Below are positions 1-63,933 of a stretch of 64,000 nt of DNA, one piece after another. The translations under genes and the position numbers were made by a program. The stretch comes from Prochlorococcus sp. scB243_495L20 (GTDB lineage Bacteria; Cyanobacteriota; Cyanobacteriia; PCC-6307; Cyanobiaceae). The DNA is taken from NCBI GenBank assembly GCA_000634215.1, contig JFLX01000113.1:899-64898 (forward strand), written 5' to 3'. Numbering within the stretch: the first letter of the stretch is position 1; every line of letters starts with the position of its first letter. The notes below the pieces were generated by a model, which did not search any database, was not told where the DNA came from, and saw only the letters and a program-made list of their open reading frames with translations.

Positions 1-2
1 CA

Positions 3-620: not shown

Positions 621-629
621 TCTTTTTAA

Positions 630-1697: not shown

Positions 1698-1707
1698 TTT
1701 AAATCAA

Positions 1708-2118
1708 ATGTTGCATGGACTACTTTGGTTACCATTACTTCTAATCTTCATTTTATTAACTGCACTTGGGTGGTTAGAAAGAAGAAGGCAAAATCTTTTT
1801 AGAAGTTGGGCGAGTGATTCTGAACTATGCAAGTTAGACAGTTCAAGCGCAGCATCCTTAAAAGATGGTGAGTTAAAATGGAGCTTATTTGAAGCTGGCA
1901 AATTTGAAGAAAAAGATTGTTTTATAATAAAGAAACTGGAATTAGTTGAATTAATGGCACTAACTTCAGGAGAAGCTCCACTAACAAGTGAATCTCAAGG
2001 TAAGTGCAGGTTGAGATTAGTAGGGGATGGGAAAGAGATGGATGTACCATTTTCAGATGCAGAGCAAGCGAGAGAATGGATGGACCAACTGATGGAAAAA
2101 GCTCGCTGTGATTTGTGA
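1708..2118 (+). CDS. Conserved cyanobacterial hypothetical protein with N-terminal membrane anchor
   Basis: 136-aa ORF packed between ddl and ftsQ, overlapping ftsQ by 4 nt; hydrophobic N-terminus followed by WLERRRQ. Confidence 0.75.
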   Translation: MLHGLLWLPLLLIFILLTALGWLERRRQNLFRSWASDSELCKLDSSSAASLKDGELKWSLFEAGKFEEKDCFIIKKLELVELMALTSGEAPLTSESQGKCRLRLVGDGKEMDVPFSDAEQAREWMDQLMEKARCDL

Positions 2119-2840
2119 AAAACCAAAAAAGAATCAATAATAGAAGCTTTTTTTTTCTAATTTCATTTTTATTTTTAACGACATTATTAAATATAAAAAG
2201 TCTCAAAAAAGTTTATATACAGGATATTAGGATTTCTGGTAGTGAATTATTTTCGCAGAATGATGTGGTAAAAAATTCATCTTTAAATTTTCCAATCCGA
2301 CTAATTTTTGTTGAAACCAATCTGTTAGAAAAAGAATTAAAACAAAATTTATCCCTCAAGAATGTTTCGGTAAGCAGAGAATTATTTCCTTTTGGTTTGA
2401 AAATTATTGTTAATACAAGAATCCCAATAGCTTACGGTGAGAGAATGTTAAATGACGAAAAAATATTAGGCTTCATTGATAAAGATGGAATTTTCATAAA
2501 TAAACAAAATGTGGACGAAAAAAATTTGAATAAATTAACCATTCAAGTTTTTGGCTGGAAAGAAAAATTTAAAAAAATATTATCTGAAATTTTTATCGCT
2601 ATAGAGAATTATGAATTAGAGATAGTTAAAGTAACCTTCTCAAACGATGGATTTCTAACTGTTGAGGAAAAAGATTTAAAAACAATATTTTTAGGATTTA
2701 AGCCAAATTTAATCAACTATCAATTACAAAAAATAAATAATCTTAAAAATCAACTTAAGAAAAATAGCTTTTCAAAAAAAATAGATAATATTGATCTTAC
2801 CAACCCAGATAAACCAAAAATAAAAGTGTTCAAACCCTAA
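2115..2840 (+). CDS. ftsQ: Cell division protein FtsQ/DivIB
   Basis: N-terminal TM helix, POTRA-like segment (ISGSELF...VSRELFPFGLKI), C-terminal IDLTNPDKP; directly upstream of ftsZ. Confidence 0.88.
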   Translation: MKNQKRINNRSFFFLISFLFLTTLLNIKSLKKVYIQDIRISGSELFSQNDVVKNSSLNFPIRLIFVETNLLEKELKQNLSLKNVSVSRELFPFGLKIIVNTRIPIAYGERMLNDEKILGFIDKDGIFINKQNVDEKNLNKLTIQVFGWKEKFKKILSEIFIAIENYELEIVKVTFSNDGFLTVEEKDLKTIFLGFKPNLINYQLQKINNLKNQLKKNSFSKKIDNIDLTNPDKPKIKVFKP

Positions 2841-3018
2841 TATTTGAAAAAGGATTCTGAGTAATTTTTTTTAATTATTGTAGTGTTGATATGGGTTTTG
2901 CATTCAAAAAAAATATTTAATAAATAAATATTTTTAGGATTTTCCTCAACAAATTCCTACAGATGAGCTCAGTAAGTTCATAATGCACCCAATACTAGTA
3001 TTAGATTCCTATTAAGAG

Positions 3019-4134
3019 ATGAGCTTCGGTAACAATCCAAACTTTGATCAATCGAGAGAAATCCTTCCAAGCCAAAACGCCAAAATAGAAGTTATTGGTG
3101 TAGGTGGTGGCGGCAGTAATGCGGTAAATAGAATGATTAATAGTGATTTAGAGGGTGTTTCATTCAGAGTCCTCAATACCGATGCACAAGCCCTACTACA
3201 ATCTTCTGCAGAGAGTAGGGTGCAACTTGGACAAAACCTCACTAGAGGTTTAGGTGCAGGAGGAAATCCAAGTATTGGACAAAAAGCAGCCGAAGAATCC
3301 AAAGAAGAGCTTCAACAAGCTTTAGAAGGATCTGATCTGGTTTTTATAGCCGCTGGAATGGGTGGAGGAACTGGCACAGGTGCAGCTCCCGTTGTTGCAG
3401 AAGTAGCCAAACAAAGTGGGGCTCTAACAGTAGGTATAGTAACCAAACCATTTTCTTTTGAAGGGAAAAGAAGAATGCGTCAAGCAGAGGAGGGGATCGC
3501 AAGACTAGCTGAAAACGTCGATACTCTTATAGTTATTCCAAATGATCGATTAAAAGACGTTATAGCAGGAGCTCCTCTTCAAGAAGCATTTAGGAATGCT
3601 GATGATGTTCTAAGGATGGGCGTCAAAGGTATTAGTGACATAATTACTTGCCCAGGATTAGTTAATGTTGATTTTGCAGATGTAAGATCAGTCATGACGG
3701 AAGCTGGCACTGCTCTTCTAGGAATAGGTATAGGTTCAGGAAGATCAAGAGCTCTAGAGGCAGCACAGGCAGCAATGAATAGTCCTTTATTAGAAGCAGC
3801 TAGAATTGATGGAGCCAAAGGCTGTGTTATAAATATTACCGGTGGCAAAGACATGACTTTAGAAGACATGACCTCGGCATCCGAAATTATTTATGATGTT
3901 GTTGATCAAGAAGCAAATATTATTGTTGGTGCAGTTGTCGATGAAGCAATGGAAGGGGAGATTCAAGTTACTGTAATTGCCACAGGATTTGAAACAACCC
4001 AACCATTAAACCAGCAAAGAATAAAAAACAGACTATCTAATCAACCTATTTATAAATTTTCCGATAATAAAGAATCAGGAGCAAGTATTCCTGAGTTTTT
4101 GAAATTAAGGCAAAATAAAAAAGATATTGGTTGA
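3019..4134 (+). CDS. ftsZ: Cell division protein FtsZ
   Basis: [15 protein letters not shown], tubulin signature [18 protein letters not shown]-terminal IPEFL. Confidence 0.99.
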
Positions 4135-4148
4135 AATGTAAAATAGAG

Positions 4149-4244
4149 TGACTCGGTTATCTCGCCTGCCTCAAGCATCCCTTGTGGCTGCTACCTTCCG
4201 GTCCTGACCAGGTTTAGGCGTTAAAACCGCGAAAGGCCGAGTCA
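4149..4244 (-). ncRNA. ffs: Signal recognition particle RNA (small bacterial SRP)
   Basis: The reverse complement contains GGTCAGGACCGGAAGGTAGCAGC (SRP helix-8 consensus). Terminal segments GACTCGG (4150-4156) and CCGAGTC (4237-4243) pair to close the long stem. Confidence 0.93.
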
Positions 4245-15443: not shown

Positions 15444-15514
15444 AGCGGGCGGCGGGAATCGAACCCGCATCTTCAGCTTGGAAGGCTGAGGTTTTACCAC
15501 TAAACCACGCCCGC
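15444..15514 (-). tRNA. trnG: tRNA-Gly(TCC)
   Basis: Reverse complement GCGGGCGTGGTTTAGTGGTAAAACCTCAGCCTTCCAAGCTGAAGATGCGGGTTCGATTCCCGCCGCCCGCT folds as a cloverleaf; anticodon loop CTTCCAA. Confidence 0.97.
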
Positions 15515-46967: not shown

Positions 46968-47017
46968 AACGCAACCTGCTATTTTCTTATAAGGGGAATA
47001 AAAAATTTCTTCAATTT

Positions 47018-47089
47018 GGGCGATTAGCTCAGTGGTAGAGCACTACCTCGACACGGTAGTGGCCACTGGTTCGAATCCAGTATCGCCCA
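47018..47089 (+). tRNA. trnV: tRNA-Val(GAC)
   Basis: GGGCGATTAGCTCAGTGGTAGAGCACTACCTCGACACGGTAGTGGCCACTGGTTCGAATCCAGTATCGCCCA; CTACC/GGTAG anticodon stem with GAC. Confidence 0.97.
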
Positions 47090-47156
47090 TCAAAACTTTT
47101 GACGACTTAGGTTAGATCCACAGAAAATAATTTCATTTTTTAGATTATTAAAAAAG

Positions 47157-49251: not shown

Positions 49252-50400
49252 TTATTTTTTAGAAAAATTTTCTAAAATTCTCTGATTTATTTTTGGAATA
49301 TTTTCTTTAAATTTAAAAAACCCTCTTTTAGCAAATTTCCAAGCAAATAAATCTTCATCCCTCACAAGATTATAAATTTTTTTATGGTGTAAATTTTTAA
49401 ACTCAGTTATGAAATCATAATTTTCTCCCACTCCAGGATAAATAATGTCTATTTCGTTAGTATTTTTAAAAGTATTTTCTAACGAATAAGGATCAATCTG
49501 TTCAACATTATCAAATTGCTCTAAAAATTCAGAGACCAAATCTTGTTTAAATTTCAATACAGATTCAGACAATGTAATTTGTCTTAGTTCATTTTTTAAA
49601 AGGATAATAAATACTTTTTTATAGCTTGGAAGTAAATTTTTAAGGGTTGCAAGGTGTAGATCATTTTCAAACATAATCAGATTATCTGATTTAGGATCCA
49701 TATCATTTTTATAAATCTCATCTTCAAATGGTATTTGATTAGATTCTTCAAGAAAAATTTGTTGATTACTTATTTTTTCTACATTAAATCTATTATTTGA
49801 AAACTTTCTGAGGTTTGACGATGAAAAAAGATATTGTTTTCCCTTCGTTTGCAATCCTCCGACCCATCTCCAGCTAAGGAGATTAGATGAAGCATCTCCA
49901 TCAAAAAGATACTTAAAGAAAAACTTTGCTCCCAATTGCCATGGGAGGCCTAAATTAAATATCCAAGTACTCGCAAACCACATTCTTGTATGGTTATGCA
50001 AATAATTGTACTGCTTTAATTCATGTACCCAAGAATTAAAAAAATCTAATTCTGTATTGCCATTAATTGCACTTTCATATAACTCATAATCAAAGTCGAG
50101 ATTGTTTTCTGAAATAAAATTTCTCCAAACTTTAGGTCTATTTTCCATCCACCCTTTCCAGTAAACTCTCCAAAAAATTTCTTCAACAAATTTAGTTGAA
50201 TTTTTGATTTTGTACTTACTTTTAATATCATGGATCAGATCATATTCCGATAATATTCTATGAGTAATGAAAGGCGATAATTTTGAAACTGAACTTTCAT
50301 TATTTGGCCCAAAATCAAAATTTCTTAATTTTGCATAATCATTGATTTTGTATTTCGCAAAATTTTCCCAGGTATTTTGAGCTTTTAATAAAAAAGACAT
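49252..50400 (-). CDS. Photolyase/cryptochrome-family protein with N-terminal FAD-binding domain (inverted domain order)
   Basis: YAKLRN...SKLSPFIT...EEIFWRVYW...YLHNHTRMWFAS...LFDGDASSN...WRWVGG all lie in the N-terminal half. Confidence 0.85.
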   Translation of the reverse strand: MSFLLKAQNTWENFAKYKINDYAKLRNFDFGPNNESSVSKLSPFITHRILSEYDLIHDIKSKYKIKNSTKFVEEIFWRVYWKGWMENRPKVWRNFISENNLDFDYELYESAINGNTELDFFNSWVHELKQYNYLHNHTRMWFASTWIFNLGLPWQLGAKFFFKYLFDGDASSNLLSWRWVGGLQTKGKQYLFSSSNLRKFSNNRFNVEKISNQQIFLEESNQIPFEDEIYKNDMDPKSDNLIMFENDLHLATLKNLLPSYKKVFIILLKNELRQITLSESVLKFKQDLVSEFLEQFDNVEQIDPYSLENTFKNTNEIDIIYPGVGENYDFITEFKNLHHKKIYNLVRDEDLFAWKFAKRGFFKFKENIPKINQRILENFSKK

Positions 50401-50677: not shown

Positions 50678-51427
50678 ATGAATAATTTATTAGTGAGAGA
50701 TGTTAAGTATCTAGATGAACAATACAGAATTGGTGAAGGCATAATTACGGATGATGCATTTAAGCAACTTGAAAAGCTCTTTATACCTGTTGATCGAGAG
50801 CCTGACTACTTTAATCAAAAAAATAATAAACTTTTGCCAAAATTAGCCAAAGAAAACTATAAAGAATTTTTGGAAAGTTTATTAACAAAAACAAGATTAA
50901 GCATTCAACCAAAAATTGATGGCTGTGCTATTGCAATTAGATATCTAGATGGCAAGTTTAATAAAGCTATTACAAAAAAAGGATTTGATGTCTCAAGCAA
51001 AATTAAACAAATTAAAAATGTCCCCGATTGTATTCCTATCAAACGAGATTTTCAAATTAGAGGTGAACTATACGCTACAAACCAAGTTGCCGGCATTTCC
51101 CAAAGAATTACAAGAAAATACCTCAATGATAAGAAAGGGATTGGAGAAAGTCTCCGCTTTTGCTGTTTCCAAATACTTAATGGAAGACTTAATCAATACG
51201 AAACCCTTAACTATCTTAAAAAATGTGGCTTCAGCACCCCTGACAGTTACTTCACAAATCATACAAGCGAAATCCAAATATTTAAAAAAAATTGGTTAGA
51301 GAAAAAAATATTCGCGAAATATCCAACTAATGGGATAGTTGTAAAAATAAATAGTAGGAAATTACAGTTACTTAGAGAGAAAAGTTTATCTCAAAATAAC
51401 GAATGGCAATATGCAATTGAAAAATAA
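50678..51427 (+). CDS. Stand-alone NAD-dependent DNA ligase adenylation (Ia + NTase) domain
   Basis: QPKIDG (motif I), IRGELY (III), FCCFQI (IIIa), TNGIVVK (IV), WQYAIEK (V), then stop; no OB/HhH/BRCT. Confidence 0.8.
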   Translation: MNNLLVRDVKYLDEQYRIGEGIITDDAFKQLEKLFIPVDREPDYFNQKNNKLLPKLAKENYKEFLESLLTKTRLSIQPKIDGCAIAIRYLDGKFNKAITKKGFDVSSKIKQIKNVPDCIPIKRDFQIRGELYATNQVAGISQRITRKYLNDKKGIGESLRFCCFQILNGRLNQYETLNYLKKCGFSTPDSYFTNHTSEIQIFKKNWLEKKIFAKYPTNGIVVKINSRKLQLLREKSLSQNNEWQYAIEK

Positions 51428-51535: not shown

Positions 51536-52465
51536 ATGACTGCCACCATTTCAAGACCTAAAATCTCTAACTGGGAAACATCTAATATTCCAATCCTTAC
51601 AGGCAAAACAGCACTAATTACTGGTGCGAATAGTGGTCTTGGATACTACACTGCAAAGGCCTTAGCAGAAAAAAATGCTCATGTTGTTATAGCTTGTAGA
51701 TCACTTGAAAAAGCTAATCAAACTATCAAAAAACTTAAAGGTCTTAATCCTGAAGGATTATTTACACCTTTAGAATTAGATTTGTCAGATTTGAAAAATA
51801 TTGTTGAAGTTCAGTCCAAAATTCTTGATAATTTTGAAAATTTGGATTTACTAATCAATAATGCTGGCATTATGCATCCGCCTAAAACTCTTAGTGCCCA
51901 AGGATATGAAATACAATTTGCAGTTAATCATCTAGCTCATATGCTTTTGACTCTAAAGCTACTTCCAATTATTGAAAAAAAAGAAGAATCTAGAATAGTG
52001 ACTGTGACTTCAGGAGCACAATTTTTTGGCAAAGTTGGTTGGAAAAATCTGAAAGCCGAGAACTACTACAACAAATGGGAATCTTACTCCAATAGTAAAT
52101 TGGCAAATGTAATGTTTGCTTTGGAACTAAATGAGAACTTAAAGCACAAAAATATACTTTCTTTAGCTGCTCATCCAGGAATTGCAAAAACAAATCTCTT
52201 TACTGCTCAAAAACCTAACCCTGGTCCATTAGAAACATTCTCATTGGAATTATTTAGTCCTATTTTTCAAACTGCTGAGATGGGTGCTTTACCTCAGCTT
52301 TTTGCAGCTACTTCACCAGACGCAAGAGGCGGTGATCATTATGGTCCTAGATTTAATTTCAGAGGTCATCCAAAACTATCCCCTACTTCTCCTTTCGCCA
52401 TGAATAAAAAAGAAAGAAAAAATTTATGGGAAAAAAGCCTCGAAATACTTAATAACTTCTTATAA
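51536..52465 (+). CDS. Short-chain dehydrogenase/reductase (retinol-DH / WWOX-like)
   Basis: TGANSGLG, LINNAGIM, YSNSK (YxxxK), HPG. Confidence 0.92.
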   Translation: MTATISRPKISNWETSNIPILTGKTALITGANSGLGYYTAKALAEKNAHVVIACRSLEKANQTIKKLKGLNPEGLFTPLELDLSDLKNIVEVQSKILDNFENLDLLINNAGIMHPPKTLSAQGYEIQFAVNHLAHMLLTLKLLPIIEKKEESRIVTVTSGAQFFGKVGWKNLKAENYYNKWESYSNSKLANVMFALELNENLKHKNILSLAAHPGIAKTNLFTAQKPNPGPLETFSLELFSPIFQTAEMGALPQLFAATSPDARGGDHYGPRFNFRGHPKLSPTSPFAMNKKERKNLWEKSLEILNNFL

Positions 52466-52726
52466 ATTTTTCATTTTTACTAACTTTAGAAAATACTTCA
52501 AGATATGTAATTCACTCTCTGAGAGTTTCATAAATTCTGTTAAGGCATCATAATTTTTTTCATCAATTTTTTTTGACAATTGAATAAAACTATCATGGTT
52601 TTCATTAACAAAGCGCTCAGCAATCTGAGACGGAGTTAAACCCTGTTCAATTAATTCACCTGGAGCATTTTTCTCCCAATTTTCATAAAACCAAGAGAAC
52701 CAATATTTTGCAGTATTATCTTCCAT
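52460..52726 (-). CDS. 88-aa acidic hypothetical protein, paralog of 63190..63507
   Basis: ATG ORF; aligns without gaps to the 63190..63507 product. Confidence 0.75.
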   Translation of the reverse strand: MEDNTAKYWFSWFYENWEKNAPGELIEQGLTPSQIAERFVNENHDSFIQLSKKIDEKNYDALTEFMKLSESELHILKYFLKLVKMKNL

Positions 52727-52778
52727 TAATTAACTTTTCTTGGGCGAATACTATTAATAATGAAGAAAAATTTCATGA

Positions 52779-54227
52779 TTGAATTACCCTTTAAACACAA
52801 TTAATATAAATGCAATTATAAATTTAATGATAGATAATCATTCAAGTAAAAGAAATATTAATCTTGTAGTTGGATTAGGTAAATCTGGATTTTGGGCTGC
52901 AAAGTATTTGAGAAGCATCAATAAGAGAGTAATTGTTTGGGAAAGTAAAGATGGGATAGAATTCTTAGAAAGAAAAACAGCATTAGAAGAGCTTAATATC
53001 ATAGTTTCTCTAAATAAAGAATTTGTATTTGAAGAAATTCAACCTTTTTTGAAAGAGATCGAATCTGTAGTTGTTAGTCCATCAATACCTTATGACCATA
53101 TAACTATTAATGAATTAAAAAAAAAGGGAATTAAAGTAATTGGAGAAATTAATGTTGCATGGGAAATTTTAAAAGACACAAATTGGATAGGTATTACTGG
53201 CACTAATGGCAAGACTACTGTTACTCATCTACTAAGCCATATACTCTGTGATACTGGATTATATGCTCCTTTTGCTGGAAATATTGGTACACCTTTATGT
53301 AAGTATGCTCACTCCAAAAAATATGAAAAAATTGATTGGGTTGTAGCTGAATTAAGCAGTTATCAGATAGAAATATCTCCAGAAGTAAAACCTAATATTG
53401 GAATATGGACAACCTTCACAGAAGATCATCTTGAAAGACATAAAACGCTTGAAAACTATTTCAACATAAAAAAAAGCTTGTTAGAAAAATCTGATTTTAG
53501 AATTTATAATTATGAAGATAAAAACCTAAGAAATCACTACAGTTCGCTATCAAGAGGGGTTTGGATAACAACTAGTTTCGATAAATCAAATTTTATTCAT
53601 TGCGATTATTGGATAGATGAACAAGCGTACATTATTGAGAGAGGGAAGAAATTATTCAAACTTGAACATTTTGCTTTAAAAGGAATGCATAATCTTCAAA
53701 ATCTTTTATTGGTAATTGCAGCAGCAAGAAAAGTTGGATTATCTGGCAAGAAGATTAAAGATTCTTTATCTAATTACAAACAATTACCCCATAGGATGGA
53801 AACAATTTATAAAAATAATGATCTGGAAATCATCAATGATAGTAAAGCTACAAATTTTGACTCATCTATTGCGGGAATAAATTCAATTGAAGGTCAAATA
53901 ATAATCATTGCTGGGGGTAGATTAAAAGGTAATAAATATAGTGAGTGGATAAAAGTTTTAAAGAAAAAAGTTAAATGTGTTTTTCTTTTTGGAGAAAGCT
54001 CAAAAGTCCTAAAAATGGCGCTTATTAATGAAGGATTTAAAAAAAATGTTTTTGAATTTTCAGAACTAAAAGAGCTTTTAAATTTTGTTTTTCATTATTT
54101 ACAAAATAATAGGGTTGGAACATTATTATTCTCACCTTCATGCTCTAGTTTTGATCAATTTAAAAATTATGAAGAGCGTGGAGATTATTTCAAGAAACTA
54201 ATAAGTGAAAAATTAAAGGTTAATTAA
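52779..54227 (+). CDS. murD: UDP-N-acetylmuramoyl-L-alanine--D-glutamate ligase (likely start ATG 52827)
   Basis: [59 protein letters not shown]. Confidence 0.96.
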
Positions 54228-54343
54228 TCCATTTTTTGTTCAAGTATCATTTCGTAATTTTCAGGTCGGTCATCACAACCGTTTACCCTCTGGCAAATAT
54301 TCACTTAATTAGTTAGATTCTGACTATAAATTAACCACTAGCA

Positions 54344-54658
54344 ATGAGTGAATCTAACAATTTACCTCAAGCAATAAGTCATAAAAAATTAAGTTACTTG
54401 ATGCATAAGGCACAAAAGGATTCTCATTTTTCTGATGAATTAGCAGAAATAGAAAGCTCTGAAAAAAGAGAATTTGAAGAGTTAATCAATAATTGGGAAG
54501 CTTCAACTAAAAAGGTAGTTAATGAGTTATCAAAAAGAAAAGAGAATTTACTAAAAGATAAATCACCAAATTCTCTAATTGCACTTGGTGCTATGGAAGT
54601 TCACCTTAATATGGCTTTGCAAGCCTTAAATGCATTTAATAAAGGAATTGATGGGTAA
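54344..54658 (+). CDS. Helical hypothetical protein (104 aa)
   Basis: ATG ORF with normal codon usage; C-terminal LIALGAMEVHLNMALQAL. Confidence 0.7.
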   Translation: MSESNNLPQAISHKKLSYLMHKAQKDSHFSDELAEIESSEKREFEELINNWEASTKKVVNELSKRKENLLKDKSPNSLIALGAMEVHLNMALQALNAFNKGIDG

Positions 54659-54671
54659 AATAACAGATATA

Positions 54672-55406
54672 TTATATGGAAGGCATCGAAAATAAGAGAA
54701 AATCTAAGTTTTTTTCAGTATCTATAGAAACATCATCATAATAATTAACCTCAAAACCCAAGCCATCTCCAGATTCGAGAAATATATTTGAATTAGAGTC
54801 TTTACTTTTTAATAAAAGATTACCTTCTATTATTTGTATCCAATTATATTTATCGATTTTTAATGGCAATTTTTTTTCTTTAATTGGCTTATATTTACAA
54901 CGCCATAAAGAGATACTTTGATTTAGAAAAAGCTTATTATTTTTACTGTCTTTGTAATTAAAAATAAGATTGTCCCACAACTTTTCATTTAATGAAATTT
55001 GATCATATCGAGGTTTGATATTTTCTTTTTGAGGGTATATCCAAATCTGGAACAACTTACAGTTCTCATTTTCTTCATTCTTCTCGCTATGAGATATTCC
55101 AGTACCTGCAGACATAACTTGTACTTCATCTTTGCGAATTTTCCCAAGATTGTTTAAAGAATCTCTGTGAGTTATTGCTCCTTCTGTTACGACAGTAATT
55201 ATTTCCATATTTGCATGAGAATGTGTATTAAATCCTGCATTAGGAGAAATAATATCTTCGTTGATAACTCTAATTTTCCCAAAATTATCCCATTTTGGAT
55301 CTCTATGCTCTGCGAAAGAAAATGAATGCATCGAATTTAGCCATTCTCTAGTAGATTTAAATCTTTCGTGAGATTTTCTTATTTTAATAATATTAAAAAC
55401 CATCAA
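54672..55406 (-). CDS. Pirin family protein (YhhW-like bicupin)
   Basis: HSFSF...RVINED...GFNTHSHANMEIIT...MSAGTGISHSE...QIWI. Confidence 0.93.
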   Translation of the reverse strand: MMVFNIIKIRKSHERFKSTREWLNSMHSFSFAEHRDPKWDNFGKIRVINEDIISPNAGFNTHSHANMEIITVVTEGAITHRDSLNNLGKIRKDEVQVMSAGTGISHSEKNEENENCKLFQIWIYPQKENIKPRYDQISLNEKLWDNLIFNYKDSKNNKLFLNQSISLWRCKYKPIKEKKLPLKIDKYNWIQIIEGNLLLKSKDSNSNIFLESGDGLGFEVNYYDDVSIDTEKNLDFLLFSMPSI

Positions 55407-55498
55407 TAGTAAATAGATTAAAAAAATTCTAAATAATTAGAAAAATATTTGTAAGATTTTTTTGATAAATTATTTCTAAAAAAAAGCAAAGATCAAAT

Positions 55499-55627
55499 TT
55501 AAAAATTTATTTTACTCTGAGCCTTATTAGCCTTTATCAATATTTTTTGTGCTTCATCTCTTGTAAGGCATTTTTCTGCTTTTACATTTAAGTTTTTTAG
55601 TTTTTGCAGTTGCTTTGTGTTACTCAT
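55499..55627 (-). CDS. 42-aa basic helical microprotein (below the ORF-track cutoff)
   Basis: Translated by hand: MSNTKQLQKLKNLNVKAEKCLTRDEAQKILIKANKAQSKINF. Confidence 0.6.
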   Translation of the reverse strand: MSNTKQLQKLKNLNVKAEKCLTRDEAQKILIKANKAQSKINF

Positions 55628-55692
55628 AATTTAACCCGTTCTTAAAGTTATATTAACATAAGTTTAAATTAATTGCCCCTTAAACCTTTGCA

Positions 55693-56235
55693 TCAAAGTT
55701 TTTTTACAGCTTTGAGAATGGAATTATCAGAACAGTATAGTGGATGTATTGGATTATCTTTGATTGTTTTCTTAATTAAAAGCGGTCCAAGAGGATTATC
55801 AAAATTATTTTTTCTGATTGAGTTATATTGCATTATTTTTTTTAATATTCTTTTATTTCTATTTAGAAATTTCCCTTTGTTACCCCAACCTAACCATAAA
55901 TCACAATTTTTATTTTCAGACCAGTGTTTTAAGTTTTTATAAATATGATTATTGTTTAAATACCCAACAGGATTTTTGTGATTAAAGAGTCTCTCTGGAT
56001 TACTTGAAATAAGAGCAAATAAATTGATTAATTTAACTTTGCCATAATTATTATTTTTCGAGATTTTAATTATCTTTTTTGTTGTATTATCCAAGAAAAC
56101 TTCATCAGATAATGAGGGATTTAAACCAATAAAGATAATCTCTTTTTTAGATTTAGAAATCTTATAACTTAAACTCCATCTATATAGTTTGTTTGCACTT
56201 ATTAAACAATTCCTTTCTAGAAATGAATTGTTCAA
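55693..56235 (-). CDS. DUF1643 domain protein
   Basis: YRWSL...FIGLNPS...DNTT...NLFA...WLGWGN...HPLY. Confidence 0.88.
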   Translation of the reverse strand: MNNSFLERNCLISANKLYRWSLSYKISKSKKEIIFIGLNPSLSDEVFLDNTTKKIIKISKNNNYGKVKLINLFALISSNPERLFNHKNPVGYLNNNHIYKNLKHWSENKNCDLWLGWGNKGKFLNRNKRILKKIMQYNSIRKNNFDNPLGPLLIKKTIKDNPIHPLYCSDNSILKAVKKL

Positions 56236-56717
56236 CCTAAACCTACACCTCTAGCCATGAGAGTGGCAAACAAAGGTATTGTTGCAAAGCCCACTAATTC
56301 AGTAGTAATGATTAGTCTGAACCTCTTGACTAGATTTTCAGATATTTCAGGTAATTTATTCTTACTTAATGGAATGGCCCATAAGATATAGGTTGTTGTT
56401 GGATATAAAGAAAGTAATCCCACAAGAATATAAAGAGAAACCTTTATCCAAAACACAGGATTACCTGTATAGAAATCACCTCCTTGACCAAAATACTTAA
56501 CACGCAAAATCCCAGTAACTAATATCGCAACTCCTGCTAAACCATAAACCACATCTGCAATTATCATTGAGATCGTCTGATTTCTATTAAGACCTACTTT
56601 GAGAGTCAATCTTTCAAACAAAAGAGAACCGAAACACAATATTATTCCTAAATAATGAATATATGCTACTAATGCACTTTTCGCAATTTCACCTGTCAAT
56701 AAAGTTCCAAATAACAT
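56232..56717 (-). CDS. DUF2214 family membrane protein
   Basis: AYIHYLG...ADVVYG...YTGNPVFWIK...PLFATLMARGVG. Confidence 0.88.
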   Translation of the reverse strand: MLFGTLLTGEIAKSALVAYIHYLGIILCFGSLLFERLTLKVGLNRNQTISMIIADVVYGLAGVAILVTGILRVKYFGQGGDFYTGNPVFWIKVSLYILVGLLSLYPTTTYILWAIPLSKNKLPEISENLVKRFRLIITTELVGFATIPLFATLMARGVGLG

Positions 56718-56805
56718 TTTCTAGTCAAAATTTATACAATACTAACCACCAATTAAAGAATTTGTTTAGAAAATAAATTAAACAATAAAAAGTCAGCTAT
56801 TGAAT

Positions 56806-57555
56806 CTAGGACTCTAAAAACCTTTTTTGACCATCTTCAAAGAAATCCTTTTTATTCCAAACTTCGATTACATCTGGGAAATGTTTTTCCATACAATTAT
56901 CACAAACCCCATGACTGAATCTTATATCACTAATTTTCGAAAGATATTTTTCTAAATGCATCCAATCGCCCTCCTTATTTTTCACTTCTCTGCAATATGA
57001 ACACACAGATAAAATACCTTCCTGTTTGTGCAAGTTAGACAAAGCATCTAGCAAGTTCAATGACTTTTTTCTAAGCTCTAAAAATGAAACTATTTGCTTG
57101 GATAATAATTCCATAATATTGAATTGTTGTGTAGTTAGATTTCCTGGCTTTCTGTCTATTACACAAAGAGTTCCAAGTTTATTACCATCACTATTTCTGA
57201 GGGGAAAACCTGCATAAAAACGAATCTTGGGGTCTCCTGTTACCAATGGATTATTTAAAAACCTTTCATCTTGAAAAGCATCATGAATAATTAATGGACT
57301 ATTTTCTTTTATTGCATGGGTACAAAAAGACCAATCTCTTCTAGTTTCTGATATTTGAAGTCCTATTTTAGATTTAAACCATTGTTTATCTTTGTCTACC
57401 AATGTCATTAAAGAAATAGGCACATTACAGGTTGTAGCAGCAATTTTTGTAATATCGTCATAACATGATTCCGGCTTGGTTCCCAAAATCCTATATTCTG
57501 CTAAAGCTTTTAATCTTCTTTCCTCTTCTTCTTTTTTTGATACAAGATTCTGCAT
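56806..57555 (-). CDS. GAF-domain protein with C-terminal CxxC...HxxCxxC module
   Basis: GAF (YDDITKIAA...QWFKS...SFCTHA...RFYAGFPL..GTLCVID), followed by CSYC...W...YL...FSHGVCDNC. Confidence 0.88.
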   Translation of the reverse strand: MQNLVSKKEEEERRLKALAEYRILGTKPESCYDDITKIAATTCNVPISLMTLVDKDKQWFKSKIGLQISETRRDWSFCTHAIKENSPLIIHDAFQDERFLNNPLVTGDPKIRFYAGFPLRNSDGNKLGTLCVIDRKPGNLTTQQFNIMELLSKQIVSFLELRKKSLNLLDALSNLHKQEGILSVCSYCREVKNKEGDWMHLEKYLSKISDIRFSHGVCDNCMEKHFPDVIEVWNKKDFFEDGQKRFLES

Positions 57556-57674
57556 TAATCTTCACCAATAATTAAAACTTTAAAATTAAAGTTTCTCCAA
57601 AAAACTTTTTCCTTCTAATACTTAATAAAAAAAAGATAAACTTATTGAATTGTTACTTACTGATTTATTACTTA

Positions 57675-58919
57675 TTAATTTAATATTGATTGATTTAACT
57701 TTGAGACTGCCATCCCAGCGATCCATCCACTTGTCCAACAATGTTGAAAATTAAATCCACCAGTGATCCCATCAACATCCAAAACTTCTCCAGAAAAAAA
57801 TAATCCTGGACAAATTAAGCTCTCCATACTTTTAAAATTAACCTCATTAATTTTTACGCCTCCGGCAGTAACAAATTCCTCTCCAAATGGACCTTTTCCC
57901 GAAATTATATATTTATCCCTCATAAGAGTATTTATCATTTTCTCTCTTTCATCCGCCAGTAAATCAGCCCATTTTTTCTCTTTATCAATACCTATTTTCT
58001 TTAATAAAAAAATCCATAATCTTTTTGTTAATAGTGGCACAGGTCTACTATTAATAAGATTCACCTTGCCTTTATTTAATCTTAAATAATTAATTTTTTC
58101 TTTTAACTCCTCATAACTTAAAGAAGTCCATTTAATGATTAAATTAAATTTATATTTTTGGCTATAAAGTTCCCTCGCTGCAATTGATGAAAGTTTTAAT
58201 ACTGCTGGCCCACTAAACCCCCAATGCGTTATTAGTAAATCGCCTCTATTTTGAAAATTCTTATTATTTAAATTAATTTCTATATCTATGCCCCTTATCG
58301 ATACCCCACTACATTCATCCAAATTTGGTTCTTTTGTGGAAAAAGTAAAAAGCGATGGTAAAGGTTTAACAATGGTGTGTCCAAGATTTTGAGCTAATTT
58401 ATATCCGCTTGGATTACCTCCAGTTGAAAGAATAATATTTTTTGAAGTTACCTTTGCTTTTTTAAGACTAAAAATATTGAATAAATTATCTGGAGTTTTT
58501 GCAATTTCTTTTACAAAAAATTTTGTTAGTATCTCTACGTTTTTTGATAAAGCACTTTTTCTCAAACAATCAATAACATCTGAAGAAGAATTAGACACTG
58601 GGAATACCCTTAGATCTTCCTCAATTTTTAATTTTAAACCTTTTTTCTCAAACCAATCGTATACATCTCCAGCAGCAAAACGATTAAATGATTCCAAGAG
58701 CTGAATTCCACCTCTGGGGTAATTCTCAATTAGCTCATTCGGTATCCATGTCGCATTAGTGACGTTACATCTTCCCCCTCCACTAATCCTTACTTTCTCC
58801 ATAAGTTTTGAAGTTCCTTCAAGTATTATTATTCTTTTTACTCCATTTTCAGCAGCAGTTATTGCTGTCATAAAACCGGCTGCACCGCCTCCAACAACTG
58901 CTAAATCAAAAGGTTCCAA
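57675..58919 (-). CDS. HI0933/YhiN (BaiN-like) flavoprotein oxidoreductase
   Basis: VVGGGAAGFM, KVRISGGGRCNVTN, LLITHWGFSGPAVL, VTAGGV, GEVLDVDGITGGFNFQ. Confidence 0.93.
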   Translation of the reverse strand: MEPFDLAVVGGGAAGFMTAITAAENGVKRIIILEGTSKLMEKVRISGGGRCNVTNATWIPNELIENYPRGGIQLLESFNRFAAGDVYDWFEKKGLKLKIEEDLRVFPVSNSSSDVIDCLRKSALSKNVEILTKFFVKEIAKTPDNLFNIFSLKKAKVTSKNIILSTGGNPSGYKLAQNLGHTIVKPLPSLFTFSTKEPNLDECSGVSIRGIDIEINLNNKNFQNRGDLLITHWGFSGPAVLKLSSIAARELYSQKYKFNLIIKWTSLSYEELKEKINYLRLNKGKVNLINSRPVPLLTKRLWIFLLKKIGIDKEKKWADLLADEREKMINTLMRDKYIISGKGPFGEEFVTAGGVKINEVNFKSMESLICPGLFFSGEVLDVDGITGGFNFQHCWTSGWIAGMAVSKLNQSILN

Positions 58920-59104
58920 AAACTTATTATTTAATGTACTTCAATCTGATAATAGCAAGTAGTTATAAAGAAAAATTAGTCCAAAAACCATAAAAAAATA
59001 AATATAAAACTTTAAAGCTACATAATAAATAGCTACGATTCACTAATTTTAAAATTTCTAGAAAAATCAACACAGTCGTTATTTTTATGCTTTAAGTTAA
59101 TTAA

Positions 59105-59341
59105 ATGAGTATGTTATTTTCTTACGTTAAATATTCTGAGGCCAGTTTCCCTATGACTGGTCAATATACTGCTCTTCTTTTAATAACTTTTGTTATTTGG
59201 GTTCTACTTTGGTTTGGATATAGACAAAATAAGATAAATGATGAGATCAAGAAAAAAGAAAAAGAAGAAAGAATTAATGCGAAAGTTCAAAGAAGAAAGA
59301 AGTTAGAGAGTTTGTACCCTACTAATAAAAAAACTGTTTAA
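59105..59341 (+). CDS. Single-TM small protein with basic coiled tail
   Basis: TM ALLLITFVIWVLLWFG, then a K/E/R-rich tail ending LESLYPTNKKTV. Confidence 0.65.
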   Translation: MSMLFSYVKYSEASFPMTGQYTALLLITFVIWVLLWFGYRQNKINDEIKKKEKEERINAKVQRRKKLESLYPTNKKTV

Positions 59342-59360
59342 AATTGACTACTTTAGAAAC

Positions 59361-59459
59361 ATGAAAAAAAATAATTTCAAATCACTAATTCAGTACTTAC
59401 CGGGGATTTTGATTCTTATTTATGTATTCTTTTTAGCATTTACTCAATTCATAAAATAA
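59361..59459 (+). CDS. 32-aa single-TM microprotein
   Basis: Translated by hand: MKKNNFKSLIQYLPGILILIYVFFLAFTQFIK. Confidence 0.45.
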   Translation: MKKNNFKSLIQYLPGILILIYVFFLAFTQFIK

Positions 59460-59480
59460 AATTTTTAAAAATTATTCGTT

Positions 59481-60353
59481 TTGATTGGAATCCTTTCTGC
59501 TTTTGGAGCTGCTACATCTTGGACATATGCGTGCTTTATTTGGCGCTCGCAAACTCAAAAATATAAATCAATAGATATTAATTTAATAAAAAATATAATA
59601 GCTTTTTTAATTTTTATACCTGCTTTTATCAATCTAAATTCTACAACTGAATTAAAAAACATATTTATCCTACTAATTAGTGGAATAATAGGTATTGGTT
59701 TAGGTGATACTTTCTATTTAAAGTCACTTCAAACAATTGGCACAAGAAAAACTTTATCTATAGAAACTCTTTCTCCGTTAATGGCAGCTTTATCAGGGGA
59801 ATTTTTTATTAATGAAAATTTAACAACTAAATCATGGGTTGGAATAACTATAGTAACGATTTCGCTATTCATAATTCTCAGAAAAGGTAACGATTTTAAA
59901 GAGGAAAACTTCTCTTTCTCAGAAAAAAATAACTTTAAGATTTTTGCTTTTCCTTTTTTATCAGTTTTATGTGCTGTTCTTGGAGGTCTTTTATCAAGGA
60001 TGGTTTTCCTTCAAAGCAATTTATCTCCTTTCCTTACAACTGAAATAAGATTATTAGGTTCAATAATTTTTTTAATTAGTCTAAAAGGATTTAAGATTAA
60101 TTTTTTCTTAAAAAAAATAGACAAAAAACAACAAAAAAGATTTTTTATTTCAATACTTCTTGGAACAAATGTAGGAATATTTCTACAACAAGTTGTGTTT
60201 AAGACCCTTCCCATAGGAGTAGGATGGGCTTTATTAAGCATATCTCCAATAATTTCTTTATTTTTTGCTAAGACTGAGGAAAGAGAAATTACCAAAAAAA
60301 TAATATTTTTTACTTGTTTTTTATTTTTTGGCTTGACATTAATAATTCTTTAA
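59481..60353 (+). CDS. EamA/DMT family transporter
   Basis: Ten hydrophobic segments in two repeats; GIIGIGLGDTFYLKSL..IG. Confidence 0.88.
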   Translation: MIGILSAFGAATSWTYACFIWRSQTQKYKSIDINLIKNIIAFLIFIPAFINLNSTTELKNIFILLISGIIGIGLGDTFYLKSLQTIGTRKTLSIETLSPLMAALSGEFFINENLTTKSWVGITIVTISLFIILRKGNDFKEENFSFSEKNNFKIFAFPFLSVLCAVLGGLLSRMVFLQSNLSPFLTTEIRLLGSIIFLISLKGFKINFFLKKIDKKQQKRFFISILLGTNVGIFLQQVVFKTLPIGVGWALLSISPIISLFFAKTEEREITKKIIFFTCFLFFGLTLIIL

Positions 60354-60430
60354 TCTCTGAGTTAATGTAAAAAATACTCATGTTAATAATAATCAAATTA
60401 AATAGAATTACCCTATAAACACTCAAAACA

Positions 60431-60553
60431 ATGAAAATATTAAAGAAAAAAAGACTCGGCACATTGGAAGTTTATGTTGTTTTTTTAAGCTGCATTTATG
60501 CAGGCTTTATAGGTTATAAATCTCTCTTAAATATTTTATTTACTTGGAATTAA
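60431..60553 (+). CDS. 40-aa single-TM microprotein
   Basis: Translated by hand: MKILKKKRLGTLEVYVVFLSCIYAGFIGYKSLLNILFTWN; its stop overlaps the convergent 60550 ORF. Confidence 0.45.
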   Translation: MKILKKKRLGTLEVYVVFLSCIYAGFIGYKSLLNILFTWN

Positions 60554-60684
60554 TTAATTTTTTCTAATGATTTAATCAACTTACCTCCATCTTGGTCATC
60601 ATCATCGTTTGAAGCGAAAAATAAAAAAAATATTCCTAAAGAAGCTATAGATAGCGAAATTGACAATACAGAAAGCTCATCCAT
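60550..60684 (-). CDS. 44-aa single-TM microprotein with acidic DDDDQDGGKLI tail
   Basis: Translated by hand: MDELSVLSISLSIASLGIFFLFFASNDDDDQDGGKLIKSLEKIN; motif shared with 61819..62001. Confidence 0.72.
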   Translation of the reverse strand: MDELSVLSISLSIASLGIFFLFFASNDDDDQDGGKLIKSLEKIN

Positions 60685-60776
60685 AAATTAGAATTTCTTT
60701 TATGTTAAACGAAAAAAAATAAAAGACAGTAAAGAAATACACATTCTCGAAAATAAATATTTCTTTTATTTGTAAA

Positions 60777-61076
60777 ATGAAAACACATCCGAACTATTTC
60801 GTGAAAGTTCTAATAACTTCCCCCTGTAGTGCAAGCGTAATAATTCAGTATGGAATAAAAAGTTGGCCTATTTGGGAATGTGAGCCAAGCAAATTTCAAT
60901 GGAATTACGATGATAAGGAAATTTGCTTAATTATTGAAGGTCAAGCGAAAATAAGTACCCAAAACGGTGACATTTACGTGATTAAAGCTGGAGATCTAGT
61001 TGAGTTTCCTGCTGGACTTAACTGCGAATGGGAAGTAACCAAAAGTATTAAAAAACATTATCGATTGGGTAGCTAA
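60777..61076 (+). CDS. DUF861/EutQ-like cupin (likely start GTG 60801)
   Basis: WPIWECEPSKFQWNYDDKEICLIIEGQA...GDLVEFPAG...WEV. Confidence 0.88.
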   Translation: MKTHPNYFVKVLITSPCSASVIIQYGIKSWPIWECEPSKFQWNYDDKEICLIIEGQAKISTQNGDIYVIKAGDLVEFPAGLNCEWEVTKSIKKHYRLGS

Positions 61077-61167
61077 ATTTAAGAAAAAAGATTTTTTCTT
61101 CTTTACTGTTAAGTCAATGAAGATAAAATATGGTTAATAAATAATTTTCAAGAAGGAAACTAATATT

Positions 61168-61338
61168 ATGCCTTTTACTGATCAAGAATATTTTGAGGTT
61201 ATTGAAAAAAACGAAATAGTAAAAAAGGCCTTTGAAAAAATTAAGCAAATTTGCATTGATTTACAAAAACAAACAAATTGTCCTGAAGAGGATCTAAAAG
61301 ATTTTCTTGAATTTATATCTAAACAATGGAATAAGTAA
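61168..61338 (+). CDS. 56-aa soluble helical microprotein
   Basis: Translated by hand: MPFTDQEYFEVIEKNEIVKKAFEKIKQICIDLQKQTNCPEEDLKDFLEFISKQWNK; AAGGA lies upstream. Confidence 0.65.
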   Translation: MPFTDQEYFEVIEKNEIVKKAFEKIKQICIDLQKQTNCPEEDLKDFLEFISKQWNK

Positions 61339-61402
61339 TAATTAAAAAGCCTTTTAAATGCAAAATTTAAAATTTTTATTTAGTTTTCTGAGACAATAAG
61401 TT

Positions 61403-61534
61403 CTAATCTAATTCCTTTTTTGGTTTTGTATTGATACTGGAAGTTCCCTTAGCAGCAGAAACGAAGAAAAAGAAGCCTACAATTCCTGATATACCAAATA
61501 TCGCAGCCAAAGGATCAAAAGTGAAAGAAAACAT
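61403..61534 (-). CDS. 43-aa single-TM microprotein
   Basis: Translated by hand: MFSFTFDPLAAIFGISGIVGFFFFVSAAKGTSSINTKPKKELD. Confidence 0.6.
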   Translation of the reverse strand: MFSFTFDPLAAIFGISGIVGFFFFVSAAKGTSSINTKPKKELD

Positions 61535-61818
61535 AGAATTTATAAAATCAAGATAAATAATAGTTTTTGAATCAAAATTGTATAATTATTGTTAAGTATA
61601 AAAAATAACAATCGCGCGATTCATTATGTCATTATTAGTTTCTCAGTAGGTTCAAAAAAATTATTATTCAAATTGATTTTAAGAACAAAAATATCAAAAC
61701 ATACCAAAGATCTATTCGTGCTAAAGAGAAAAGTTTTTAAAAAATATTTATAGAAATATTGAATAAAAAACGACCCAGAGCATCCACATTTGTTGTTTCT
61801 TTAGATTAATATCAATTT

Positions 61819-62001
61819 ATGACAGAATTTTACTCAACTTCTTCCTCAGTAGGTCCTTTTACAGCGATATTATGGTGCCTTTATCCAGTAGCTTTACTTT
61901 TAATTATTGAATTACTTCTGGGGGGTGGGTTTGATGATGACAATAATGACGATCAAGATGGTGGAATGCTAATACCCGCTTACTCTAGATCAGACGTTTG
62001 A
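61819..62001 (+). CDS. 60-aa single-TM microprotein with acidic DDDNNDDQDGGMLIP tail
   Basis: ORF-track protein; TM ILWCLYPVALLLIIELLL; motif shared with 60550..60684. Confidence 0.75.
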   Translation: MTEFYSTSSSVGPFTAILWCLYPVALLLIIELLLGGGFDDDNNDDQDGGMLIPAYSRSDV

Positions 62002-62047
62002 AATTTTGAATTTTTTTAATTAAAGACTCATAAGGAATTTAATTAAA

Positions 62048-62188
62048 TTGGAGAACAACATTGATACAACTCATATTTCTCTGATTACACTTACCATCCT
62101 AATGATTTCCTCTCTAACCTGGCTCGTCTTTAGAACCCTTAAGGAAGGTAGAAAAGCTCTAACAGAAATAAATAAGGATAAATCGTGA
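62048..62188 (+). CDS. 46-aa single-TM microprotein (TTG start)
   Basis: Translated by hand: MENNIDTTHISLITLTILMISSLTWLVFRTLKEGRKALTEINKDKS; AAGGA lies upstream. Confidence 0.5.
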   Translation: MENNIDTTHISLITLTILMISSLTWLVFRTLKEGRKALTEINKDKS

Positions 62189-62435
62189 AATACAATAACA
62201 ATTCAAAAATGTAGAATTTGATTAGATTTATAAAACTCCTAGATTTATAAGTTTTACTAACTAAATAGATATATTCCAAAAAATTTAAAAACTTTTCCTT
62301 TTCAAAGTTTGGGAAAAGCATAAAAAACTTAAATAAATACTAGAATTTGTTTGATCGCTAAGTCAAAAAATTACCAATCTGTTGAAATCCCATTTTTATG
62401 AAAGGACTTCTTTGTTATTACTTTAATAAATAAAA

Positions 62436-62531
62436 ATGCATCTAAATTCTTTACTTTATATTTGTTCTATATCTTTATTCATTTATATAATGGCGCTGTT
62501 TTGGCGAGACTTGCCAAATCAAAAAAAATAA
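62436..62531 (+). CDS. 31-aa single-TM microprotein
   Basis: Translated by hand: MHLNSLLYICSISLFIYIMALFWRDLPNQKK. Confidence 0.45.
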   Translation: MHLNSLLYICSISLFIYIMALFWRDLPNQKK

Positions 62532-62609
62532 ATAATTAATATTAATTTTGTTGCTTATAAAAATTAATTGAGTTATTAATTTAATATTGGATTTAATTTT
62601 TTTATATAA

Positions 62610-62774
62610 ATGCTGAAAGAATCTTCAAATAACAATAACAAAAACATATTCTCAAAAACTAACGGTATTGCAAAAGAAAAAATGATTTGCAAAGACGGAT
62701 TCTGTTCATTACCAAATCAAGATGAGATTTCAAAACAAGATTCAAATGATATGAATTTATTTGATCCTATTTAG
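62610..62774 (+). CDS. 54-aa polar microprotein with a CKDGFC motif
   Basis: Translated by hand: MLKESSNNNNKNIFSKTNGIAKEKMICKDGFCSLPNQDEISKQDSNDMNLFDPI. Confidence 0.55.
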   Translation: MLKESSNNNNKNIFSKTNGIAKEKMICKDGFCSLPNQDEISKQDSNDMNLFDPI

Positions 62775-62842
62775 TGAATAAATAATATTTTGATAAATTA
62801 AAGATTAAATTGATAATGTTAGATTCTTTAGATTTTTAATTT

Positions 62843-63178
62843 ATGTTTAATGACTTTTTAAACGCATATAAAGAGTTTTGGATTAAAGCTACAGACTTCA
62901 AAGGATTCACATCTCGATTGGACTGGTGGTTAGTTCAACTAGCGAATCTTATAATTTCTTTCCTAACTATCCCAATATTTTTAAAAGCGTTTGGTTTCAA
63001 TGTTTATGGCTTAGTTTGTATCATTCCTCAAATAGCTATTGATGTCAGAAGAATCAAAGATTTTGGAAAAGATTGGAAATGGATCTTTATTAATTTAATA
63101 CCTATCTTAGGATGGCTCTTGTGGTTCATCTGGCTAGGCTTTGGTAAGACTGGTAATGGGAAAAATAAACTTATATAG
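62843..63178 (+). CDS. DUF805 family membrane protein
   Basis: DFKGFTSR..WW...PQIAIDVRRIKDFGKDWKWI..NLIPILGW. Confidence 0.88.
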   Translation: MFNDFLNAYKEFWIKATDFKGFTSRLDWWLVQLANLIISFLTIPIFLKAFGFNVYGLVCIIPQIAIDVRRIKDFGKDWKWIFINLIPILGWLLWFIWLGFGKTGNGKNKLI

Positions 63179-63189
63179 AAATTAACTCC

Positions 63190-63507
63190 TCAATTTTTTC
63201 TTTTTTTAAAATTTACAAATCTTACCTTTTTTCTTAACTCTATTTGTTTTTCAATAATTCTAAACACATGCATCTCGCATTCGGTTAATTTAAGAAACTG
63301 ATGGAGTATATCTTTATCTTCTTCATCAAAATTCTCGAAAACTTCTGAAATAGCAGTACTATTTATAGAAATAAAATTCTCTGCTACATCACGTGGATTC
63401 TTGCCTGATTCGAAATCCTGAAAAGCTTCATAAGAATTAAGTTCTCTCGTTAACCATTTAAACCATGGTTCATTTGTATTATTTTTTTTATTTATGATTT
63501 TCTTCAT
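63190..63507 (-). CDS. 105-aa hypothetical protein, paralog of 52460..52726
   Basis: ATG ORF; aligns without gaps to the 52460..52726 product. Confidence 0.75.
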   Translation of the reverse strand: MKKIINKKNNTNEPWFKWLTRELNSYEAFQDFESGKNPRDVAENFISINSTAISEVFENFDEEDKDILHQFLKLTECEMHVFRIIEKQIELRKKVRFVNFKKRKN

Positions 63508-63714: not shown

Positions 63715-63933
63715 TTGTCAATTCCATTTTACGACTTTCCTTCATCTCCAATTTTAATAATTGGTGCTCTTGGCATTGCAGTAGCGATAGCAGTTTTTTT
63801 TGTCTCTTACCAAAAATATTTCAATTCTCCTTTGAACAAAGAGCTTTCAGAAAAGAAAAAAGCCTTAATTAAGGAACAAAAAGAATTAAATGAAAGATTA
63901 GAAAAAATAGAACAAGATTTAAAAAATTTATAA
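63715..63933 (+). CDS. 72-aa single-TM protein with C-terminal coiled coil
   Basis: TM ILIIGALGIAVAIAVFFV, then heptad-like LIKEQKELNERLEKIEQDL; TTG start. Confidence 0.65.
   Translation: MSIPFYDFPSSPILIIGALGIAVAIAVFFVSYQKYFNSPLNKELSEKKKALIKEQKELNERLEKIEQDLKNL

Follow-up and report, generated by a model that had tools for sequence, protein, structure and literature searches.

Within a 64,000-nucleotide stretch of a Prochlorococcus genome (Prochlorococcus sp. scB243_495L20, assembly GCA_000634215.1, contig JFLX01000113.1, positions 899 to 64,898, hereafter the window, with a base composition of about 31% GC), two small genes, here called A and B, encode proteins of 88 and 105 amino acids (aa) that are related to each other and to no described family. 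Both lie on the minus strand, 10.46 kb apart, and each is monocistronic and flanked by one convergent and one divergent gene. An earlier note on this DNA, made from its letters alone, had described them as open reading frames (ORFs) running tail-to-tail into a short-chain dehydrogenase/reductase (SDR) gene and a DUF805 gene, and this arrangement is as it stated. The features of the two loci are the following:

52460-52726, minus strand: gene A, 88 aa, family branch A (ORF)
52505-52726, minus strand: predicted shared helical domain of A, residues 1-74, acidic (net charge -8), delimited by column conservation, charge and hhalign against branch C
52460-52504, minus strand: residues 75-88 of A and the stop codon, the branch-specific end of its long helix (ILKYFLKLVKMKNL)
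63190-63507, minus strand: gene B, 105 aa, family branch B (ORF)
63268-63468, minus strand: predicted shared helical domain of B, residues 14-80, acidic (net charge -9)
63202-63225, minus strand: residues 95-102 of B (VRFVNFKK), the core of the basic tail motif [KR]-x-R-F-V-D-F-K-K
51536-52465: SDR gene (PF00106), convergent partner of A
62843-63178: DUF805 gene (PF05656), convergent partner of B
63715-63933, plus strand: gene, divergent from B, for a single-pass membrane protein of 72 aa whose charged tail resembles a coiled coil

The two proteins resemble each other far more than chance or composition would allow, since they score 132 by Smith-Waterman, whereas 5000 shuffled versions of B score 30.3 +/- 5.6 and never exceed 66 (z = 18). 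BLASTP aligns them over 84 residues without a gap, at 27% identity and 54% positives (E 2e-14), and the 20 identities that had been counted by hand in an ungapped alignment of 66 residues are exact on recount. A and B are genuine paralogous protein-coding genes, and the paralogy proposed in the earlier note is confirmed by both measures. A search of the window by tblastn, and with a family hidden Markov model (HMM) on all six-frame ORFs, found no further copy, and no Rfam RNA was found near A or B.

The proposal of a pair was nevertheless too narrow. Searching with a profile built from A and B recovered a third branch, C, whose members of 132-136 aa carry the same N-terminal domain, then a linker and a hydrophobic C-terminus; the alignment of A and B matches that of C over 75 columns with a probability of 97.7% (hhalign, E 1.3e-12). 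The maximum Kyte-Doolittle hydropathy over 19 residues is 1.81-1.88 in C, at residues 113/117-131/135 of 132/136, compared with only 0.55 and 0.69 in A and B. With one hydrophobic segment near the C-terminus and no other transmembrane (TM) segment, C has the predicted architecture of a tail-anchored protein, which A and B lack. Branch C counts up to 1858 clusters, a figure that includes any matches to branches A and B and that is so high because C evolves fast. We had considered C the mark of a rare, unusually AT-rich lineage, given its small clusters at 90% identity and contigs of 25-28% GC; this was rejected because an HLII (high-light II) B locus also has 27.6% GC, because C is present in the Prochlorococcus single-cell genome GCA_902624785.1, and because of the cluster count itself. 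We are highly confident that A, B and C form a real, undescribed, three-branch family.

AlphaFold2 models predict the same succession of helices in both window proteins. In A, with a predicted local distance difference test (pLDDT) score of 87, helices span residues 5-19, 22-27, 32-42 and 44-53, followed by a long helix at 56-86; in B (pLDDT 81), the order is the same, the long helix covers residues 62-94, and both ends are disordered. In these models the shared domain comprises about 75 residues, with four short helices packing against the N-terminal half of the long one. Column conservation across 366 members leaves five residues invariant family-wide, G29, F39, N43, L62 and E72 (A numbering). 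Branches B and C have Cys at position 71 where A has Ser; judged from the sequences, such a swap would fit a small buried residue better than a reactive thiol. The description of a small acidic helical domain in the earlier note thus holds for the helices, all models being all-helical, and for the cores of A and B (isoelectric point, pI, 4.4-4.5; net charges -8 and -9), but not for the core of C, which is neutral (net charge 0), nor for B as a whole, which is basic (pI 8.7).

Each branch has its C-terminus among its best-conserved parts, and these ends differ. In A, the amphipathic residues 75-88 are more than 90% conserved within the branch, bear a net charge of +4 and follow the consensus ESELHILKYFLKL.K.K, with a heptad-like spacing of the hydrophobic residues L73, L76, L80 and V83. 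The exposed half of the long helix presents a continuous hydrophobic face made of L73, I75, L76, Y78, F79, L80, L82 and V83; judging from the model, oligomerisation or a partner should cover this face. In B, the C-terminus follows HVF.ILEKQI..R.K.RFVDFKK and has a net charge of +8; its basic motif stays above 90% conservation even where B orthologues share only 36-48% identity overall. In C, the end reads WSN.FVI..LI..S..SLTKQAWA, and the frequency of the top residue is 0.84 in the TM region, 0.64 in the domain and 0.43 in the linker. The three branches combine one common domain with C-terminal modules that differ from branch to branch and are under strong constraint; that of C is a predicted membrane anchor.

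No significant match to A, B, their divergent orthologues or 19 family members was found in Pfam, NCBIfam, PHROGs or PADLOC. Sub-threshold matches are scattered (AcrF3, PEARLI-4, Csx1, ChpS, FosB), and none recurs among the 19 members: Pfam AcrF3 appears in one of them (E 0.15) and NCBIfam ChpS in one orthologue (E 0.098), both at 12.9 bits where the respective cutoffs are 27 and 101, and a PHROG annotated as a transcriptional regulator matches residues 23-38 weakly (E 0.37). Single-sequence and profile searches of PDB sequences returned only designed repeat proteins and noise, and Foldseek, run with the A and B models against the PDB and with A against BFVD, gave nothing at E < 1; its best local fits, to MarR-family TcaR (3kp7, E 1.9, 44 columns) and to 7kua (E 9.2), are not significant. 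Since neither sequence nor fold libraries return a significant match, the family is undescribed, in agreement with the earlier note, whose author had recognised no family. One orthologue of B in NCBI (MDA9700330.1, P0126 in our set) is annotated as 'restriction endonuclease subunit S'. We rejected this label: neither B nor P0126 matches Methylase_S (PF01420) or any other Pfam or NCBIfam model at E up to 10, the protein has 105 aa against about 400 aa for HsdS, and there are no hsdM or hsdR neighbours. The label is probably a database mis-annotation that could propagate.

At 90% identity, homologues form 444 clusters for A and 1297 for B, nearly all from marine metagenomes and Prochlorococcus genomes. 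When the A+B profile was run with HMMER against 1.84 billion representative proteins, only 54 were found at E <= 1e-3, all of AT-rich-type composition and many of them fragments; the claim that the family is restricted to high-light (HL) lineages rests on this search together with composition. A scan of GTDB with the same profile gave 322 loci encoding relatives, and the best 80 of the 322 are all HLII-like A loci from Prochlorococcus single-cell or isolate genomes (one labelled Synechococcaceae), among them strains SB, MIT 9314, MIT 9302, MIT 9322 and SS51. The A proteins of these 80 loci are 97-100% identical, which identifies the window as HLII-like Prochlorococcus. The family is found only in AT-rich Prochlorococcus-type sequence, and to that extent the earlier suggestion of a lineage-expanded domain is supported by the profile search and the 80 best GTDB loci. 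A is under purifying selection (Nei-Gojobori dN/dS, the ratio of nonsynonymous to synonymous substitution rates, 0.05-0.14, measured for A only).

Gene order around A and B is conserved in divergent relatives. A 58%-identical A lies between an SDR gene and murD in contig L082, and a 41%-identical A is again convergent with an SDR gene in L119. A 43%-identical B in L117 keeps its divergent neighbour, a gene for a membrane protein of 72/73 aa (about 75% identical), while HLII B loci retain the DUF805 neighbour. No copy of A, B or C was found by tblastn in 50,697 GenBank phage records, and IMG/VR, searched with the A/B and C profiles, gave a single match, a host-like fragment with a psbA/hli cassette.

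That fragment (UViG_3300006334_001484; positions 1-3340 of our locus L081) corresponds to the region just to the right of window position 63761. Here the 72-aa gene upstream of B breaks off after its first 15 codons, which are joined to an Hli-like ORF; psbA (359 aa) and an ORF resembling 2-oxoglutarate-Fe(II) oxygenases come next. The fragment represents either a cyanophage-type cassette inserted beside B or a chimeric assembly, and this is why a host locus stands in a viral catalogue. In another locus (L111, 1-5841), the genes beside the divergent B orthologue P0252 encode an HNH protein, a HEPN_Swt1 protein of 1083 aa and a protein of 652 aa, and the two loci together suggest that the flank of B is a hotspot of variable, defence-like or phage-derived DNA. 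Directly upstream of A in L082 (5477-5990) are two genes, 10 nucleotides (nt) apart and on the same strand, for a DUF3721 protein (80 aa) and an 86-aa membrane protein; with A they may form an operon, and both are absent from the window.

In the window itself, the 6 nt at 52460-52465 belong to both A and the convergent SDR gene, and their palindrome TTATAA supplies both stop codons and both final Leu codons. The divergent neighbour of A is murD, and B lies among the DUF805 gene, the gene for the 72-aa membrane protein, which has no Pfam family, and fatty-acid desaturase genes. Positions 50678-51427 (plus strand) encode a 249-aa protein whose sole domain is an NAD-ligase adenylation domain and which matches the truncated 'ND-Lig tr' of high-light Prochlorococcus (bioRxiv 10.1101/2020.05.11.089284). 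Conserved synteny was not seen for ND-Lig tr in that preprint (bioRxiv 10.1101/2020.05.11.089284), unlike here, where the synteny of the gene is shared with the 70%-identical contig L082. It adjoins a gene for a 382-aa protein with only a photolyase FAD-binding domain (49252-50400, minus strand). The window further contains the housekeeping RNAs SRP (signal recognition particle) RNA (4147-4243, minus strand), tRNA-Gly(TCC) (15444-15514, minus strand) and tRNA-Val(GAC) (47017-47091, plus strand).

The neighbourhood of branch C is fixed. In all 27 loci examined (26 from metagenomes and that of GCA_902624785.1), C immediately precedes a same-strand exonuclease-LigB-Lhr-phosphoesterase cluster, from which 39-60 nt separate it. 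The combination of LigB, Lhr-Core, a metallophosphoesterase (MPE) and an exonuclease is a repair cluster according to Ejaz & Shuman 2018, as reviewed in PMC7470946, and within Prochlorococcus ATP-dependent ligases have been reported from high-light strains only (bioRxiv 10.1101/2020.05.11.089284). A conserved -10-like box stands just upstream of C, and the sequences preceding A, B and C showed no motif resembling a LexA box (RGTACNNNDGTWCB). The gene on the other side of C is a small IF2_N-like gene, and FtsH, ClpP and Thf1 are encoded a few kb away. In L099 (7696-9893) and L116 (9629-9916), a conserved set of genes upstream of C encodes a ribbon-helix-helix-like protein of 122 aa, a DUF2130 protein (about 435 aa) and the IF2_N-like protein (about 96 aa); they share the strand of the repair cluster, and DUF2130 is absent in L116.

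Our preferred explanation, in which our confidence is low, is that the shared domain would be an adaptor or regulatory protein-binding module, which the C-termini direct to different partners or locations. The TM tail anchor of C would deliver the domain to the membrane, the basic tail of B would target it to an anionic surface such as nucleic acid, or to a docking site, and A would self- or hetero-oligomerise through its exposed hydrophobic face. The fixed neighbourhood of C, and only this, suggests a link to DNA-damage or high-light repair. A bolder and quite unlikely extension takes the fold as new and the family as an innovation of high-light Prochlorococcus that organises or regulates the clade-specific ATP-ligase/Lhr repair as a localisation switch of three paralogues. 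In this scheme the exonuclease-LigB-Lhr-MPE machinery would be tethered or gated at the membrane by tail-anchored C, and the adaptors A, which is soluble, and B, with its basic tail, would compete or be complementary, for instance on the nucleoid.

Several points weigh against the adaptor explanation. What A, B and C bind, where they reside and whether they oligomerise is conjectural, and the monocistronic A and B have no conserved functional neighbour. Branch C is not present within the 64-kb window. Gene order in Prochlorococcus is generally conserved, so the neighbourhood of C is a lead rather than proof and may be inherited synteny. A blank Foldseek comparison is weak evidence for small helical proteins, and the marine metatranscriptome contigs that cover the A and B loci, at a depth similar to that of neighbouring genes, are supporting evidence only, since they are unstranded and could contain DNA.

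Two other cellular roles compete with this explanation. The proteins could be assembly or stability factors of a membrane complex, thylakoid or envelope, unrelated to DNA repair, with C anchored and A and B peripheral through an amphipathic helix or a basic tail. The near-invariant TM segment of C would imply a specific intramembrane partner, the C-termini of A and B have the amphipathic or basic character that peripheral binding would use, the conserved divergent neighbour of B is itself a single-pass membrane protein, and the FtsH, ClpP and Thf1 genes are not far from C; yet membrane binding by A and B is conjectural, their maximum hydropathy is low, and FtsH and Thf1 are separated from C by 7-8 kb and many genes. 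We are doubtful of this role. Alternatively, the family could consist of small helix-turn-helix (HTH)-like DNA-binding regulators, in which an H3-turn-H4 segment (G-x-x-P-x-x-I-A-E-x-F-V-x-x-N) reads DNA and the long helix dimerises; A and B would act on their divergent neighbours (murD and the 72-aa membrane protein gene, respectively), C on the repair cluster, and the tail of B would add affinity. The invariant G29, F39 and N43 bracket this HTH-like segment, the only local Foldseek fits are to MarR-family proteins, a PHROG regulator is among the weak matches, and the divergent arrangement of A and B, like the +8 tail of B, would suit such a role. Against it, the Foldseek and PHROG matches are all non-significant, no Pfam HTH model is found at E up to 10 in any of the 19 members, and the helix that would recognise DNA, HDSFIQLSKK in A and STAISEVFEN in B, is acidic or neutral, in domains whose net charges are -8 and -9. 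Moreover, A and murD are separated by two other genes in L082, and a membrane-anchored C would be unusual for a DNA binder, so that we regard this alternative as unlikely.

The functions floated in the earlier note fare less well. DNA mimicry, or another anti-restriction or anti-defence activity, would suit the acidic cores of A and B, the sub-threshold AcrF3 match and the position of B at the border of a variable region with HNH/HEPN genes or phage-like cassettes in some lineages, but A and B are single-copy, syntenic, core chromosomal genes that are not on mobile elements, the phage genomes hold no homologue and the lone IMG/VR match is host-like, the core of C is neutral, AcrF3 is confined to one member and no fold in PDB or BFVD matches; we consider it very improbable. 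Metal binding through an invariant E-x-E-x-H is slightly less credible still: within branches A and B, conservation of E70, E72 and H74 reaches 94% or more, but the divergent A orthologues P0243, P0245 and P0250 have Y, L and L in place of H74, branch C has K or N there, E70 becomes I, Y or N in C, and only E72 is kept family-wide, the other two failing to persist beyond HLII-like A and B. Since the would-be ligands occupy positions i, i+2 and i+4 of a helix predicted with confidence, their side chains would also point in different directions. An antitoxin role, for which the small size and the one sub-threshold ChpS match could be cited, deserves even less credence, as no same-strand gene of toxin size is adjacent, the flanking genes are convergent or divergent and unrelated, those upstream of A in L082 encode the DUF3721 and membrane proteins, PADLOC gives no match above noise, and the genes are core and syntenic rather than patchy. 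Finally, AT-rich genomes yield many spurious ORFs and biased compositions, but the z score against composition-preserving shuffles, a dN/dS well below 1, thousands of orthologues and confident AlphaFold models make an artefact of chance, composition or gene calling virtually inconceivable.

Prochlorococcus is the most abundant phototroph on Earth, and its HL genomes are extremely streamlined. That such genomes keep paralogues with strongly conserved C-termini argues that these proteins do something the cell needs. Clade-specific conserved hypothetical genes are common in Prochlorococcus. The family represents unclassified protein space, with no sequence or structural relatives, in this organism, and the fixation of C beside the LigB/Lhr cluster offers a testable lead into the response to UV and high-light DNA damage. 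The localisation switch, if true, would serve DNA-damage repair in one of the most streamlined free-living phototrophs.

Comparison with known systems yields likenesses of architecture and context. Branch C resembles tail-anchored membrane proteins in its predicted cytoplasmic N-terminal domain, single C-terminal TM segment with about 5 residues beyond it, and absence of an N-terminal signal; these proteins, however, share an architecture and are not a homologous family, and A and B have no anchor. By analogy only, the family recalls single-pass anti-sigma factors, with a helical cytoplasmic domain of about 80 residues that would be membrane-tethered in one paralogue and free in the others, but the family alignments lack the HxxxCxxC of anti-sigma factors of the extracytoplasmic function (ECF) type, Pfam and Foldseek give no sequence or fold match to them, no sigma gene lies near A, B or C, and there is essentially no extracytoplasmic domain. 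The A and B models superpose locally on MarR/TcaR winged-helix regulators over 42-44 residues at 3.9-4.9 Å, but with E 1.9-9.2 and a probability of at most 0.2, no wing, an acidic putative recognition helix and no Pfam HTH match, and the likeness of B to type I restriction subunit S is one of label only. As these proteins could be placed in no known family, apart from the generic tail-anchored architecture of C, the family is unclassified in sequence and in predicted fold, and it is assigned to a new kind by elimination, not from a demonstrated new mechanism. The remaining comparison is with the accessory genes of the LigB/Lhr-Core/MPE/exonuclease cluster: no such small protein is known to belong to the cluster in other bacteria, and A and B lie elsewhere, but in Prochlorococcus C invariably adjoins the cluster on its upstream side.

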